Of a DNA stretch of 37,915 bases, positions 18,790 to 33,396 are shown one piece after another (positions within the stretch are counted from its first letter, which is position 1; each line of letters starts with the position of its first letter). The stretch comes from a virus (lineage: Duplodnaviria > Heunggongvirae > Uroviricota > Caudoviricetes): the IMG/VR virus record IMGVR_UViG_2778261269_000005, positions 1-37,915 of that record; one strand, written 5' to 3'. The notes below the pieces were generated by a model that saw nothing but the letters and a program-made list of their open reading frames with translations, did no database searches and was not told where the DNA came from. Both the position numbers and the translations under genes were made by a program.

Positions 18790-19073
18790 CTCCGTAATGA
18801 AAGGATTTTTGATACGTTCCCGCGTGCTCGTATCACCAGCACGCAGAACACCAGGTTAATCAGGACGACCAGCCAGTTACCGGGTGGAAAGCGACCACAC
18901 AGATAACAAAGCGGCGCAAAGGCATAAAGCAGCATCAGCAGCCAGGCCAGCCACGACATCAGCGGTTTATGTCTCGACTCACCACGACGATAAAAAAAGA
19001 GCGTCAGCACGATAACCGTGCTTAACACCACATTCAGTAATCCGGGAAGGTTACTTAACATTACCGCCTCCAC
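18786..19073 (-). CDS. small membrane protein of the lysis cassette (holin/antiholin-like)
   Basis: 95-aa ORF with 3 predicted hydrophobic helices, between holin and endolysin. Confidence 0.55.
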   Translation of the reverse strand: MEAVMLSNLPGLLNVVLSTVIVLTLFFYRRGESRHKPLMSWLAWLLMLLYAFAPLCYLCGRFPPGNWLVVLINLVFCVLVIRARGNVSKILSLRR

Positions 19074-19440
19074 CCCGCAGACGGGAGAACAGCCCGGATA
19101 CCAGCGATGCGATATCCTGCTGGTGGATGAATGAGAGAATCTTCACCGACACCACCGATACCAGTACCGCGCAAAGCGCGTCGAGAGATGTGCTGTGAAG
19201 ATTCAGTTTTTCAACCAGGTAAGACGCCATCACATCCGCCCCCAGCACGCCAACAATGAACGACACCAGAAAATGCGCTGCCACACGCCAGACAGAAATC
19301 TGCTGTGGTATCGTGGCCACAAACAGCGCCCCTGCGAATGCACCAAACACAATCCCGAAATCCGTTCCGGTAAACAGCCCGAATACTGTCGCCCCGCCGA
19401 GCGCCGCAGCCGTGCCGGAACCGGACAAGGGTTCAGACAT
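19051..19440 (-). CDS. putative holin
   Basis: 129-aa ORF with several Gly/Ala/Val-rich hydrophobic helices, AGGAGA RBS, first gene of the lysis cassette. Confidence 0.55.
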   Translation of the reverse strand: MSEPLSGSGTAAALGGATVFGLFTGTDFGIVFGAFAGALFVATIPQQISVWRVAAHFLVSFIVGVLGADVMASYLVEKLNLHSTSLDALCAVLVSVVSVKILSFIHQQDIASLVSGLFSRLRGGGGNVK

Positions 19441-19460
19441 ACGTTTTTCTCCTGTAAATA

Positions 19461-19481
19461 AAAAAGGGCCTCTGTCGGCCC
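19461..19481 (-). terminator. terminator-like hairpin just upstream of the holin RBS
   Basis: GGGCC-N6-GGCCC stem-loop followed on the minus strand by a T-run. Confidence 0.45.
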
Positions 19482-19912
19482 GTAAAAAAACACCCCGTCA
19501 AAGGCACCCGCAGATACCTTTTGTGTGGCGCTATCTGATGTGATGTGCGCCAGGCGTGGCGCGGATATGAAAAAGGCCCGCCGCAGCGAGCCATATGCAT
19601 AGGTAAAAAAAATGCCCACACATAAGGCGGGCTAACGCAATGTAATGATGAAACAGAGTTTACTTGTATAGATGTTATAAGAATGCGCCGTCAGCCTGCT
19701 GTGCAAACTGGCAAATCGTAGGCCCGGAAACAGACAACGACGCATTCTGGTATCACCTCATCCCTGCAACATGCAGGGATGACTACAAAAAAAGCACTGA
19801 AACTGTAGGCGGTCAGGTCTACAGAATGAAAAACAACAAATCCACCTGCCAGGTCTGTTCTTCACGAAAATTCGCCAGTGCTGATAATAAAGCTATGACT
19901 CATCAGTTTTAC

Positions 19913-19989
19913 TGGAGAGCGGGTGGCGAGAATCGAACCCACATCATCAGCCTGGAAAGCTGAGGTAATAGCCATTATACGATACCCGC
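19913..19989 (-). tRNA. diverged tRNA-Gly(UCC)-like gene, possibly a pseudo-tRNA
   Basis: Minus strand reads GCGGGTATCGTATAATGGCTATTACCTCAGCTTTCCAGGCTGATGATGTGGGTTCGATTCTCGCCACCCGCTCTCCA: cloverleaf with GGTTCGATTC T-loop and UCC anticodon, but a 7-66 mismatch, wobbles in the T-stem and no clean CCA. Confidence 0.55.
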
Positions 19990-20206
19990 ATACTGTACTG
20001 GCTTCCGGAATCACACGAATTACCAGGAAAGCCAGCACTGGTCCTTCAGACGATAGTAACGCCCCTGTGAACACAAAAATAACCGTCTTCCGGACCAGTC
20101 AGAATACTAACGACAGTTTTTCAGACATCAAAAATATATTTGGTGTTCAGTTTTAAATATGTGTATACATCTGTATCAGAAATATACAACTTATATCATC
20201 ACTGAA

Positions 20207-21253
20207 TTAAAAATCTTTCGTGATTTCTCTGACCGTCTGATTAAAACGTTCCTCTTCCAGTTCCACGCCAATCGCCCTGCGTCCCAGCGACAGTGCCGCT
20301 TTTATTGTCGACCCCGACCCCATAAAAAAATCTGCGACCAAATCGCCTGGACGGCTGCTGGCAGTAATTATCTGACGCAACATATCCGCCGGTTTTTCAC
20401 AGGGATGTTTACCCGGATAATACTGCACGGGCTTGTGCGTCCAGACATCCGTATACGGAACGGCAGCCGATACGGAAAAATAACGCCGCAGGGATTTGTA
20501 CTCATCCAGCAGGCTGGCATATTGCCGGTTCAGTTCGCTGTATGTGCTGACCAGCTGGTGGGGTGGCTGCTCCAGTTCACCGCGCTGGTGTTTTTCTGCC
20601 GCAACACGCGCAAACAACGCCTGCAGTTTACTGTAATCGGCCTCATTCGGTAACTGCCACTGACTGGTACCAAACCAGTGCGAAGCCATGTTTTTCTTTC
20701 CGGTGGCTTCAGCTATCTGTTTTGACGTTATCCCCAGTAATTCACGCGCATCACGGAAGTAAGAAATCAGCGGAGCCATCACGTGCTGTTTAAGCTCGCG
20801 CCCCTTTGCTGCATAGCCGTCATTTTTTGGCTGGTATGGCCCCTGATAATGTTCAGCAAACAGAATGCGCTCTGTTGCCGGGAAATATGCCCGTAAACTT
20901 TCCTTATTGCACCCGTTCCAGCGTCCGGACGGCTTCGCCCAGATAATGTGGTTCAACACATTAAAACGTTCACGCATCATGAGTTCGATATCTGATGCCA
21001 GTCGATGGCCACAGAACAGGTAAAGACTTCCGGCAGGCTTCAGTACCCGCCAGAACTGTGCAAGACACTGGTCCAGCCATTTCAGGTAATCATCGTCCCC
21101 CTTCCACTGGTTATCCCAGCCCTCGGGCTTCACTTTAAAGTATGGCGGGTCTGTGACTATCAAATCGACAGAGTTTTCCGGTAAGGTCAGGATAAATTCC
21201 AGGCAATCAGCGTTGACTAACTCACAGCTGGATATTTTTACAGTATTAGCCAT
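20207..21253 (-). CDS. DNA methyltransferase, beta-class N6-adenine/N4-cytosine (DPPY) family
   Basis: 348-aa ORF; N-terminal LIVTDPPYF (motif IV) and C-terminal DFFMGSGST (motif I). Confidence 0.85.
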   Translation of the reverse strand: MANTVKISSCELVNADCLEFILTLPENSVDLIVTDPPYFKVKPEGWDNQWKGDDDYLKWLDQCLAQFWRVLKPAGSLYLFCGHRLASDIELMMRERFNVLNHIIWAKPSGRWNGCNKESLRAYFPATERILFAEHYQGPYQPKNDGYAAKGRELKQHVMAPLISYFRDARELLGITSKQIAEATGKKNMASHWFGTSQWQLPNEADYSKLQALFARVAAEKHQRGELEQPPHQLVSTYSELNRQYASLLDEYKSLRRYFSVSAAVPYTDVWTHKPVQYYPGKHPCEKPADMLRQIITASSRPGDLVADFFMGSGSTIKAALSLGRRAIGVELEEERFNQTVREITKDF

Positions 21254-21403
21254 AGATCAATAAGCACTTCTCTGATAGGCTCATACCGCTTTTGCGCAAA
21301 GCAGATGGGCCTGAGGTTTGCTTGTGACCCCAACGCATGAGCAGATGGCTGGCAGGTGCCGCTAACACCCACCAGCCGCCCATTACCACAAATTAAAAAG
21401 CCT

Positions 21404-21601
21404 TCACTGAGGAAGGCGTCTGTAACAACCGAACTGATAATCTGCCAGACCCGCCATAACAAGCTGGGTCAGTATTAACTGGCAGCGTTCGCGTGAAAGG
21501 TAAGTATTCTGCGCAATTTCCCCAACTGTTGCCGGTTCAGTGACGCTTAATTCATTAAACACCACTCTGGCTGTTTCGGTCATATCCTGCTGTTTTAGCA
21601 T
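21404..21601 (-). CDS. hypothetical small protein, possible winged-helix DNA-binding
   Basis: 65-aa ORF between the membrane moron and the methyltransferase; PATVGEIAQNTYLSRERCQLILTQL is HTH-like. Confidence 0.35.
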   Translation of the reverse strand: MLKQQDMTETARVVFNELSVTEPATVGEIAQNTYLSRERCQLILTQLVMAGLADYQFGCYRRLPQ

Positions 21602-21774
21602 GTCTTTTTCTCTTTATTGGTTAACGTGACATACCAATAACTCTTGTCGAAAAAGCCAGCAAGCTGAAAGACCGGTATTAATAACCACCTGCACATTTTA
21701 TGTACCGAACCATTTTTCTGGCATAAAAAACCTCTCAATGGCGGGCGGTAAAAATCTTTGTTACTCAAGAAATT

Positions 21775-22488
21775 TTAACGCACTCTGACTGTATTAATTT
21801 CAAAATCATTAATATTTCCGCTATTAAATATAACGAATTTCTTACCCCCACTCCTGTATGATTTCGATAACACCAGACGAGCATCATAACGCGCAATAAT
21901 GTAATACCATACATTCTCATAGTGGATCGCCTGATATTCCCTCTTAAACTGTGGTTTGTACCAACCGGCAATGAGAGAGAATGCCCAGAAATAAATCATA
22001 AACCCAGCCATCATGAACTCAATTCGGTGATGGCGAATAAAAGACATTTCCGAAAAACATTTGACTGAAACAAGTCTTCTTCCAGACCTGACAAAAAGCG
22101 TGATTGTAAAGGCAGCAAGAATGCAGAAAATCAGTACATCTGGCTCAACATGCTGATGAATTACCGAAAACTCCAGAACAGGTGGAATAAAAAGCAGCAA
22201 TATCGCGAGAAAAAGCCGGATAAAACTCAAATTTTGTATATTGCGCTTTTGTTTTATGCCCAAAAAGAAAATAATACCAACTCCCCATCCAATAAGGAAT
22301 ATAACGATAACTGTCACAGCATAAAACAAACTTCGTGCTACATCATCGACACCAGCCCCGACAACCCACCATGGAAAGCCATAGTAAAATGAAGTACCCC
22401 ATCCATAGAAATAAGCGCTTCCCCATCCTAGACAGCCCATATAAGCAACAAAAAGTGAAGAGTTTCTGAGCAGAGCACTGTCATCCAT
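21775..22488 (-). CDS. hypothetical polytopic membrane protein (AT-rich moron downstream of Q)
   Basis: 237-aa ORF in a markedly AT-rich island; aromatic-rich N-terminus (WGSAYFYGWGTSFYYGFPWWVVGAG), several hydrophobic helices, about 100-aa soluble C-terminus. Confidence 0.55.
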   Translation of the reverse strand: MDDSALLRNSSLFVAYMGCLGWGSAYFYGWGTSFYYGFPWWVVGAGVDDVARSLFYAVTVIVIFLIGWGVGIIFFLGIKQKRNIQNLSFIRLFLAILLLFIPPVLEFSVIHQHVEPDVLIFCILAAFTITLFVRSGRRLVSVKCFSEMSFIRHHRIEFMMAGFMIYFWAFSLIAGWYKPQFKREYQAIHYENVWYYIIARYDARLVLSKSYRSGGKKFVIFNSGNINDFEINTVRVR

Positions 22489-22629
22489 AGTAACACCATT
22501 AACAACTCAAAAATATCAACACATATTACATAACAAATTGGATTCCATGCAGTCAAGGGGCGTCATTGATGGAGAAAGTATTGGCACAATCATCATCACG
22601 TTTAATGTCTATGCCATTTTTTTGGGGAT

Positions 22630-22653
22630 AAAAAAACCCGCTCGGTCACGGGT
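22630..22653 (-). terminator. tR'-like intrinsic terminator
   Basis: ACCCG-N8-CGGGT hairpin followed on the minus strand by T7, about 50-65 nt after the putative start. Confidence 0.5.
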
Positions 22654-22706
22654 TTTACTAGCTTTGCCATCACGTATAAAAACGGCAAAATATCAGATTC
22701 ACACGA

Positions 22707-22735
22707 AATATATGCCTTTTTATCTACTTTTGCAA
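22707..22735 (-). promoter_or_regulatory. pR'-like late promoter immediately downstream of the Q-like gene
   Basis: Minus strand TTGCAA-17bp-TATATT starting about 10 nt after the Q-like stop codon. Confidence 0.45.
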
Positions 22736-22742
22736 TACTTTG

Positions 22743-23414
22743 CTATGAAAATGCCGCCTTTTGTTTTGAACGTGTTCCCTCCACCAACAATAAAGCTTCA
22801 CCATCCAGCCGATGAAAAATGTGTTTCATTGCAACCCAGTGACCAGTAAATGTCTTGGACCAGTTTTTGGTTGTTACTCCCACCAGTAACGCCAGTTCCT
22901 GGTATTCGTAACCTTCCCCACCAAAAAGCTCAGCTTTTACCGCCTGCGCCGCCAACCAGATCAACGTCTTCAGGCGCACCAGAGTTTTTCCTGCAATTTT
23001 TCTGGTACCGGATTGAGCATTAAATTCAGTCCACGCCCACTGCGTTATCGCGATCTGATGCTCCCAGCAAATGCTACCGCTGTAACACCACAGCAGCCAG
23101 GCTTTATGATGTTCTTCAAGAGACAGAACGGCGCGTCGCCATGATGATGTCGAAAACTCAACCGGACTGACCAGGGCAATTGATGAACCTTTCGCCAGCG
23201 ATTGCTTTCCCGGGATCGGTGGATTATCCAGCGTTACTATTTTTCCAGTGACCTTATCGCGGTACCGGATTTTTTTACGTCTGTAACGCCCTGTATTGAA
23301 CATGGCATTCTCCTGCCAGGCTTCAAGCTGACCTTTTGTTGCTCCACTCAAATCAGCGGTGGCGATCATGAGCTGCTCACGCACAAACTGTAAATACTGG
23401 TTATTCATGCGCAC
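22743..23414 (-). CDS. putative late-gene antiterminator (Q-like, QuuQ/YdfT-type)
   Basis: 223-aa ORF between rusA and the pR'-like promoter/terminator; synteny with quuQ-ydfU of Qin. Family not verified. Confidence 0.45.
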   Translation of the reverse strand: MRMNNQYLQFVREQLMIATADLSGATKGQLEAWQENAMFNTGRYRRKKIRYRDKVTGKIVTLDNPPIPGKQSLAKGSSIALVSPVEFSTSSWRRAVLSLEEHHKAWLLWCYSGSICWEHQIAITQWAWTEFNAQSGTRKIAGKTLVRLKTLIWLAAQAVKAELFGGEGYEYQELALLVGVTTKNWSKTFTGHWVAMKHIFHRLDGEALLLVEGTRSKQKAAFS

Positions 23415-33338: not shown

Positions 33339-33396
33339 TTTCTGGTGACGTTTGGCGGTATCAGTTTTACTCCGTGGCTGCTCTGCCGCCCTTTTT
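33339..33396 (+). ncRNA. dicF: DicF small regulatory RNA
   Basis: TTTCTGGTGACGTTTGGCGGTATCAGTTTTACTCCGTGGCTGCTCTGCCGCCCTTTTT matches remembered DicF nearly base-for-base, with 3' hairpin and U-run, upstream of dicB. Confidence 0.85.

Follow-up and report, generated by a model that had tools for sequence, protein, structure and literature searches.

The window, the whole 37,915-nt stretch of DNA that was analysed, carries all its late functions on the minus strand. Ahead of them lies an antiterminator gene of the Q82 family (22743..23414, minus strand), which is preceded on the 5´ side by DUF968/YdfU and then RusA, and is followed by a putative late promoter, a pause element, an intrinsic terminator, a group of cargo genes and the genes for lysis, packaging and structure. 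Strain OkiPb01716 matches the 5-kb region at 99.5% identity, and the host element is classed, from its sequence, as a Qin/82-like lambdoid prophage of E. coli. DicF is located at 33340-33391, on the strand opposite to the late genes.

The Q open reading frame spans 223 codons (23414-22743, minus strand) and ends in a TAG stop that was read directly at 22745-22743; translation likely starts from an ATG at 23408, which yields a protein of 221 aa. The protein matches the Pfam family PF06323 ('Phage_antiter_Q') with an E value of 2.1e-90 over 216 of the 220 profile positions, its sole Pfam match, and the Q-like gene of the initial annotation is thereby borne out. It also matches PHROG 304 ('anti-termination protein Q-like') and can be aligned with the Q proteins of phage 82 (X92588; 76% identity) and Escherichia phage 606R7 (91% identity). 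PF06323 is the Q82 family of Yin et al. (PMC9388147), one of three Q families that have a common function and genome position and unrelated sequences (PMC9388147). When the protein was compared with solved structures, no relative was found; Q82 is the one Q family without a match among solved structures, and whether or not it forms a nozzle is a question posed in PMC9388147.

The putative late promoter (pR´) begins 7 nt past the Q stop. Its -35 hexamer TTGCAA (22730..22735) and -10 hexamer TATATT (22707..22712), both read directly on the minus strand, are separated by the 17-bp spacer AAGTAGATAAAAAGGCA (22713..22729). The -35 hexamer is kept in relatives, and the -10 hexamer appears there as TATATT, TATACT or TACATT. 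Transcription is predicted to start 7 nt after the -10 hexamer, at 22700 on the minus strand, a numbering that fits the 82 pR´ of PMC5001585; the +1 base is a G in the window, whereas most relatives have an A there, the first of AAA. The Q-binding element (QBE) is expected to lie in the spacer; in 82 pR´ it is situated between the -35 and -10 hexamers, within -31 to +30 (PMC4914094). A CII box was also considered at this position, as TTGC-N6-TTGC on the plus strand (22730-22743; paQ in the phage 434 record), and was rejected, since the window holds 8 such motifs and 8.8 are expected.

Immediately downstream, positions 22675..22695 (minus strand) match the sigma70-dependent pause signal of 82 pR´ feature by feature (PMC5001585). 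The element consists of TG at +6/+7 (22695-22694), the -10-like hexamer TATTTT at +9 to +14 (22692-22687), GCC at +15 to +17 (22686-22684) and the AT-rich segment GTTTTTAT at +18 to +25 (22683-22676), with the predicted pause at U+25/A+26 (22676-22675). As described by Bird, Strobel and Roberts (PMC5001585), the 82 pR´ signal has a -10-like element from +9 that is of the extended -10 type and nearer to TATAAT than that of lambda, a GCC 'discriminator' at +15-17, an AT-rich segment at +18-25 and a pause at +25/26 with U at +25. A one-base insertion at +18 brings G to the pause end of 82 pR´, which implies a G at +24 (PMC5001585). The match was made against this verbal description and against loci whose Q 3´ end is identical to that of X92588, rather than against a sequence of record. 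Three such loci (L208, L209 and L211) have the leader AAATCTGATATTTTGCCAATGTTGTA, with GCC at +15-17, G at +24 and T at +25, and the G at +24 confirms the +1 numbering. The sequence TCTGATAT(T/C) is kept across the E. coli, Klebsiella and Enterobacter loci. At the sequence level the element agrees with the 82 pause signal at every described position, and pausing is predicted.

The leader ends in an intrinsic terminator equivalent to tR´ (22630..22656, minus strand; +45 to +71), in which AAAACCCGU-GACCGA-GCGGGUUUU forms a hairpin that runs into seven U residues (dG -12.3 kcal/mol, z -3.55; RNAfold). The hairpin core CCCGUGACCGAGCGGG occupies 22652-22637, A-U pairs extend the stem to 22656-22633, and the T7 run covers 22636-22630. 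A consensus scan did not list this terminator, probably owing to a stem that can take up part of the T run; the homologous hairpin is annotated as a terminator in the phage 434 record. The RNA 3´ end is predicted near +70, which would give a transcript of ~70 nt. The initial annotation had placed TTGCAA-17bp-TATATT on the minus strand about 10 nt after the Q stop and a GC hairpin with T7 roughly 50-65 nt downstream, and both are confirmed, the promoter at 22735-22707 and the hairpin, which begins 55 nt after the -10 hexamer, at 22656-22630. The module had also been called compact; the ~70-nt leader agrees with this, but such a length is normal for the Q82-type family and is not special. A second tR´-like copy at 21752-21716 was rejected as a terminator, as it does not fold (dG -2.2 kcal/mol, z +0.8).

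Taken alone, the promoter hexamers are unremarkable. They match the consensus at 9 of 12 positions, and a consensus scan of 8 kb found 16 promoter-like sites against 10.7 +/- 3.9 expected, so a 9/12 match by itself is at chance level for the region. It would be equally ordinary for the last early gene to be followed by a terminator, and the hexamers could thus be a chance match beside a hairpin and U7 run that merely end the early rightward operon after Q. Relatives were therefore collected. A Q protein search of genome contigs returned only four loci, from E. coli and Shigella, and because these were too few, IMG/VR was used. The Q-anchored set comprises the best 80 of 563 matches (77-100% identity), which reduce to 40 unique loci and are unbiased as to the promoter. 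The pattern-anchored set, obtained with a degenerate promoter pattern, comprises more than 119 loci from Escherichia-, Klebsiella- and Enterobacter-type phages; it is biased towards conserved promoters and is informative downstream of +11.

Among the 40 unique Q-anchored loci (from the best 80 of 563 matches), the distance of TTGCAA from the Q 3´ end is identical in 39, with three 1-bp-deletion variants shifted by one, TCTGATATTTTGCC is present in nearly all, and a terminator is present in 39. The Q-anchored, pattern-anchored and other fetched loci were pooled into 113 unique leaders and scanned within +110; 107 of them contain an intrinsic terminator, with predicted ends from +52 to +82 (median +75). 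The background frequency, measured in random 110-nt windows of the same loci, is 3.8% (113/3000). Both the fixed offset of TTGCAA and the frequency of the terminator in relatives place the pR´ signal above chance. Moreover, TTGCAA, TATAYT and the TGnTAT pause element keep their exact spacing across three genera, and the elements match the experimentally dissected 82 pR´. A chance match is hence highly improbable. The terminators themselves comprise 41 distinct hairpin sequences that fall into several unrelated stem families, including CCCGC/GCGGG, GCCUCGCC/GCGGGGC, GCCCGAGG/CCUUGGGC and CCUGUC/GGCAGG; the terminator is conserved as a feature while its sequence is swapped.

The relation of the promoter to the Q gene varies among relatives. 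In phage 82 (X92588) the identical -35 hexamer lies inside the 3´ end of the Q gene; likewise, in relatives that include phage 82, phage 434, 606R7 and the Klebsiella and Enterobacter loci, Q reads through TTGCAA (x-Ala-Lys) and stops at a TGA or TAA in the spacer. By this comparison, it is peculiar to the present lineage that Q stops short of the -35 hexamer and leaves a gap. Three Klebsiella-type loci have an HNH endonuclease gene inserted between Q and the promoter, and the reading frame of this gene ends ...LAKLD* across the -35 hexamer. The promoter there has remained next to the leader and is separated from Q, which also speaks against a chance match. Since the -35 hexamer is retained where the unrelated HNH gene replaces Q upstream, the promoter DNA is kept independently of the protein that usually overlaps it.

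The gap arises from a shortened Q. In the alignment, the protein here lacks 8 C-terminal residues that are present in phage 82 Q and other relatives, owing to a nonsense codon (TAG for the AAG or CAG of relatives) that occurs in about 10 of 70 Q-anchored IMG/VR loci. Most members of this TAG lineage have also lost the original stop by a later mutation (GATTAA to GATAAA), whereas L139 keeps it. The spacer shares 15 of 17 positions with the 606R7-type loci, the closest relatives with a full-length Q, and 13 of 17 with 82-like loci; the two differences from the nearest full-length-Q relatives, together with the G at +1, mean that Q loading could be weakened in this lineage. Taken further, the nonsense codon and the spacer and +1 changes might have disabled antitermination, so that the prophage would be cryptic, with the promoter making the short RNA only and the late genes silent. 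Degenerate modules do occur in E. coli and Shigella, where L005 and L006 have a 1-nt deletion between the -10 hexamer and +1 and a broken hairpin. Such decay is nevertheless unlikely here. The promoter, the pause element and the terminator are all intact, the remainder of the Q reading frame is uninterrupted, and PGAP annotates the 221-aa Q as an intact, normal gene. The 8 lost residues are the least conserved part of the Q family in the alignment and are exchanged for unrelated tails in the HNH-insertion loci. Of 5426 complete E. coli genomes, 164 carry the promoter-terminator segment at >=90% identity and 40 of these at >=99%; E. coli K_EC180, ETEC4071 and SOI121 are among those with a 100% identical copy. 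We judge the truncated 221-aa Q probably still functional.

The late genes downstream do not show decay either. The promoter-proximal part of the late transcription unit, defined from gene and terminator calls, extends over 19051..22488 on the minus strand and contains genes for a 237-aa membrane protein (22488-21775), a 65-aa ORF (21601-21404), a DNA methyltransferase (21253-20207), tRNA-Gly(UCC) (19989-19917) and the first holin (19440-19051). Further 3´, the two holins are followed on the same strand by an M15 endolysin, the small and large terminase subunits, portal, capsid and tail genes, and the lysis, terminase, portal, capsid and tail reading frames are uninterrupted. The order of membrane-protein, methyltransferase, tRNA and lysis genes on one strand is as first annotated, and the gene described there as tRNA-like is a bona fide tRNA-Gly(UCC). 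Besides tR´, four intrinsic terminators precede the holin gene, which makes five between pR´ and holin: one after the 65-aa ORF (21417-21400; dG -8.9 kcal/mol) and a tandem of three at 19632-19614 (-11.4 kcal/mol), 19592-19575 (-14.5 kcal/mol) and 19481-19466 (-11.6 kcal/mol), all on the minus strand. Such an arrangement is what one would expect if antitermination has to be processive.

The 237-aa membrane gene is itself preceded by a promoter-like site, TTGACT-18-TATGTA with a TGn motif (22556-22527, minus strand). In phage 434, the counterpart site TTGACG-18-TATGAG lies ahead of a homologous membrane gene (56% identity), and the gene seems, from these sites, to have its own promoter. A membrane gene with its own promoter-like site and a terminator after the next small ORF is the classic 'moron' layout. 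According to the initial annotation, cargo expression would be tied to lytic induction. The cargo does lie in the late unit; however, because of the conserved promoter-like site before the 237-aa gene and the terminator after the next ORF, its expression is probably not tied to induction only, and read-through by Q-modified polymerase would add to the expression of the 237-aa gene rather than be its sole source.

Taken together, the region very probably controls the late genes of a phage-82/Qin-like prophage and is the orthologue of phage 82 pR´ together with the sigma70-dependent pause signal and the first terminator of that phage. The two modules share a PF06323 Q, the -35 hexamer TTGCAA, the 17-bp spacing, the type of -10 hexamer, each part of the pause anatomy (TG at +6/7, the -10-like element at +9-14, GCC at +15-17, the AT-rich segment at +18-25 and U at +25), an intrinsic terminator within about 80 nt, and late genes downstream. 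They differ in several respects. Q here stops 8 codons early, which leaves the promoter just past the reading frame, in contrast to the overlap in phage 82; +1 is G rather than A, and the spacer differs from that of phage-82-like loci at 4 of 17 positions; the terminator stem is CCCGU...GCGGG here and GCUCGAGG...CCUUGGGC in the 82-like loci, which is a different sequence family; and membrane-protein, methyltransferase and tRNA genes stand between tR´ and the lysis genes here. At the level of sequence, the Q-family gene directly upstream, the sigma70 promoter, the pause element, the terminator and the late genes on the same strand all agree with a Q-dependent late promoter and terminator, which supports that reading.

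The initial annotation had likened the module to lambda pR´/tR´. The logic is indeed the same (PMC4914094, PMC9388147, PMC7547250): Q is followed by a constitutive sigma70 promoter whose initial transcribed region holds a -10-like pause signal, and this signal allows Q to load from its site in the spacer; transcripts that stop at an early terminator are short, whereas polymerase modified by Q goes on into the late genes. The homologue, however, is phage 82 pR´ with Q82, as is evident from the Q family, the predicted pause site and the predicted RNA length. Q-lambda belongs to PF03589, which is unrelated in sequence to PF06323 (PMC9388147), and the Q here has no match to PF03589. In lambda, the polymerase pauses at +16/17, the element spans about +1 to +6 and GGG occupies +7-9 (PMC5001585), whereas the element here is at +9-14 and the predicted pause at +25/26. 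Lambda tR´ ends at about +193/194 to yield the ~194-nt 6S RNA (PMC5001585, PMC4914094), compared with about +70 here. The module works like that of lambda but is not a member of the lambda-type pR´/Q-lambda group.

From the sequence elements, homology, conservation and gene order, which the analysis establishes, we infer transcription start, pausing, Q loading and read-through along the following lines. Host sigma70 RNA polymerase would start constitutively near 22700 on the minus strand, and sigma70 would re-bind the -10-like TGnTATTTT at +6 to +14, which would hold the polymerase at about +25/+26. Without Q, the polymerase would resume and terminate at the hairpin and U7 run at about +70, releasing a ~70-nt RNA; short terminated RNAs are documented for the phage 82 late promoter (PMC7547250). 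Upon induction, Q made from the upstream early operon would bind the spacer DNA (QBE) and load onto the paused complex with NusA. The Q-modified, terminator-resistant polymerase could then pass tR´ and the four further terminators; the cargo (membrane protein, methyltransferase and tRNA) would be transcribed first and the genes for lysis, terminase and structure after it.

The module is an already known, well-studied and ordinary kind of element that is present in many E. coli prophages. It leaves current understanding unchanged and is of low interest beyond annotation. For annotation, it shows where the late operon begins, leads one to expect a constitutive RNA of ~70 nt in lysogens, and indicates which cargo Q would boost after induction, namely the membrane protein, the methyltransferase and tRNA-Gly. 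Its natural variants, which include a Q lacking 8 residues, the replaced Q tails next to HNH genes, and leaders with or without the 5´ hairpin described below, could guide construct design.

The leader RNA has structure of its own. The transcript from +1 to +76 folds at -22.4 kcal/mol (z -3.9; RNAfold), and its MFE fold includes a 5´ hairpin, H1, at +11 to +39 (22662..22690, minus strand). A promoter-like site on the plus strand at 22664-22691 is the complement of the H1 region and was treated as a chance occurrence. The H1 core UGCCG/UGGCA pairs +14-18 with +32-36, and its 5 bp are kept in 13 aligned relatives, where RNAalifold finds one-sided changes only and no compensatory pairs. Given this lack of covariation, H1 is not claimed as functional. 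H1 is optional in the family, being missing from phage 434-type and L118/L114/L060-type leaders. Typical features of sRNAs are a 5´ hairpin, a linker rich in A and U, and a terminator that ends in a long U tail; the leader has all three, in the form of the conserved core of H1, an A/U-rich linker and the U7-tailed terminator. The ~70-nt terminated RNA might therefore act in trans as a regulatory sRNA in lysogens, like StxS, a role that would be compatible with late-gene control. StxS derives from the pR´-tR´ region of Stx phages, and its authors propose such regions as a general source of sRNAs, naming phage 82 among the producers (PMC7547250). Like the RNA predicted here, StxS is a short constitutive late-promoter RNA that ends at tR´, with cargo between tR´ and the lysis genes (PMC7547250); in contrast to this shared arrangement, StxS has no detectable sequence relationship to the present leader, by Rfam or any other match. 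We regard a trans-acting role as rather improbable. In Rfam, the leader matched no family at the gathering threshold, and the only leader or sRNA matches were at chance level (E > 0.5). H1 is without compensatory changes and absent from several family members, and relatives freely exchange the leader beyond +17 and the terminator, which argues against a conserved seed. If the RNA were such a regulator, the family-wide swapping of leaders and terminators would reflect diversification of phage-borne regulators.

Another close known system is the late region of phage 434 (OL657226) as annotated. Phage 434 has a Q82-like Q, the same -35 and -10 hexamers, and its annotated terminator about 50 nt after Q, and the homologous membrane-protein gene follows with the same promoter-like TTGAC-18-TATG site ahead of it. 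Its leader, however, is 19 nt shorter, a difference that includes H1, it has GTA rather than GCC at +15-17, and its Q is full length.

The 237-aa membrane gene (22488-21775, minus strand), which lies as cargo between the early intrinsic terminator tR' and the lysis genes, is directly followed by a second, degenerate copy (21690-21765, minus strand) of a segment comprising the 3' half of tR' and the roughly 50 nt downstream of tR'. The hairpin of this second copy no longer folds (dG -2.2 kcal/mol). The membrane-gene cassette is thus flanked by this segment on both sides, an arrangement that resembles a scar left by recombination when a moron was inserted. Upstream of the membrane gene, at a distance of about 40 nt, the minus strand contains TTGACT-18-TATGTA preceded by TGn (22527-22556). 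This site is conserved upstream of the homologue of the membrane gene in phage 434 and is probably an independent promoter of the cargo gene.

The gene of the Q82-family antiterminator Q terminates at a TAG codon (22743-22745, minus strand) that stands at the AAG/CAG position of its relatives, and the last eight residues of Q are thereby lost. The ancestral stop within the spacer of the late promoter pR' (22719-22721, minus strand) is also mutated, with GATTAA/GATTGA changed to GATAAA. The TAG is carried by approximately 10 of the 70 IMG/VR loci that were collected via the Q protein. Three IMG/VR loci (L101, L106 and L131) carry an inserted HNH endonuclease gene that separates Q from the late promoter; their Q proteins have a new tail and terminate at residue 225-227. 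The final residues of the HNH ORF, ...LAKLD*, are encoded across the -35 hexamer, so that this ORF retains the ancestral Q codons forming the promoter.

Downstream of pR', the leader can form a hairpin with the core UGCCG/UGGCA (22662-22690, minus strand), overlapping the pause signal at its GCC. The hairpin is conserved, without compensatory changes, in the E. coli-type and some of the Klebsiella-type leaders, and is missing from the phage 434-type leaders. On the plus strand, TTGCAATACTTTGC (22730-22743), which overlaps the -35 element of pR', fits the CII-box pattern TTGY-N6-TTGY; the homologous site is labelled paQ in the phage 434 record. The pattern occurs at chance frequency, with 8 instances in the window versus 8.8 expected.

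Degenerate copies of the same late promoter-terminator module are found in E. coli ECMA0423 (L005) and Shigella flexneri SFBU1023 (L006), where 1 nt is deleted between the -10 element and +1 and the terminator stem contains a mismatch. Both loci are probably cryptic prophage remnants.

A further intrinsic terminator follows the 65-aa ORF (21417-21400, minus strand). A tRNA-Gly(UCC) gene (19917-19989, minus strand) is located between the methyltransferase and lysis genes, and three strong tandem intrinsic terminators (19466-19632, minus strand; dG -11.4, -14.5 and -11.6 kcal/mol) are placed between this tRNA gene and the start codon of the holin. The early-left region contains a DicF antisense RNA gene (33340-33391, plus strand; Rfam, 75 bits).
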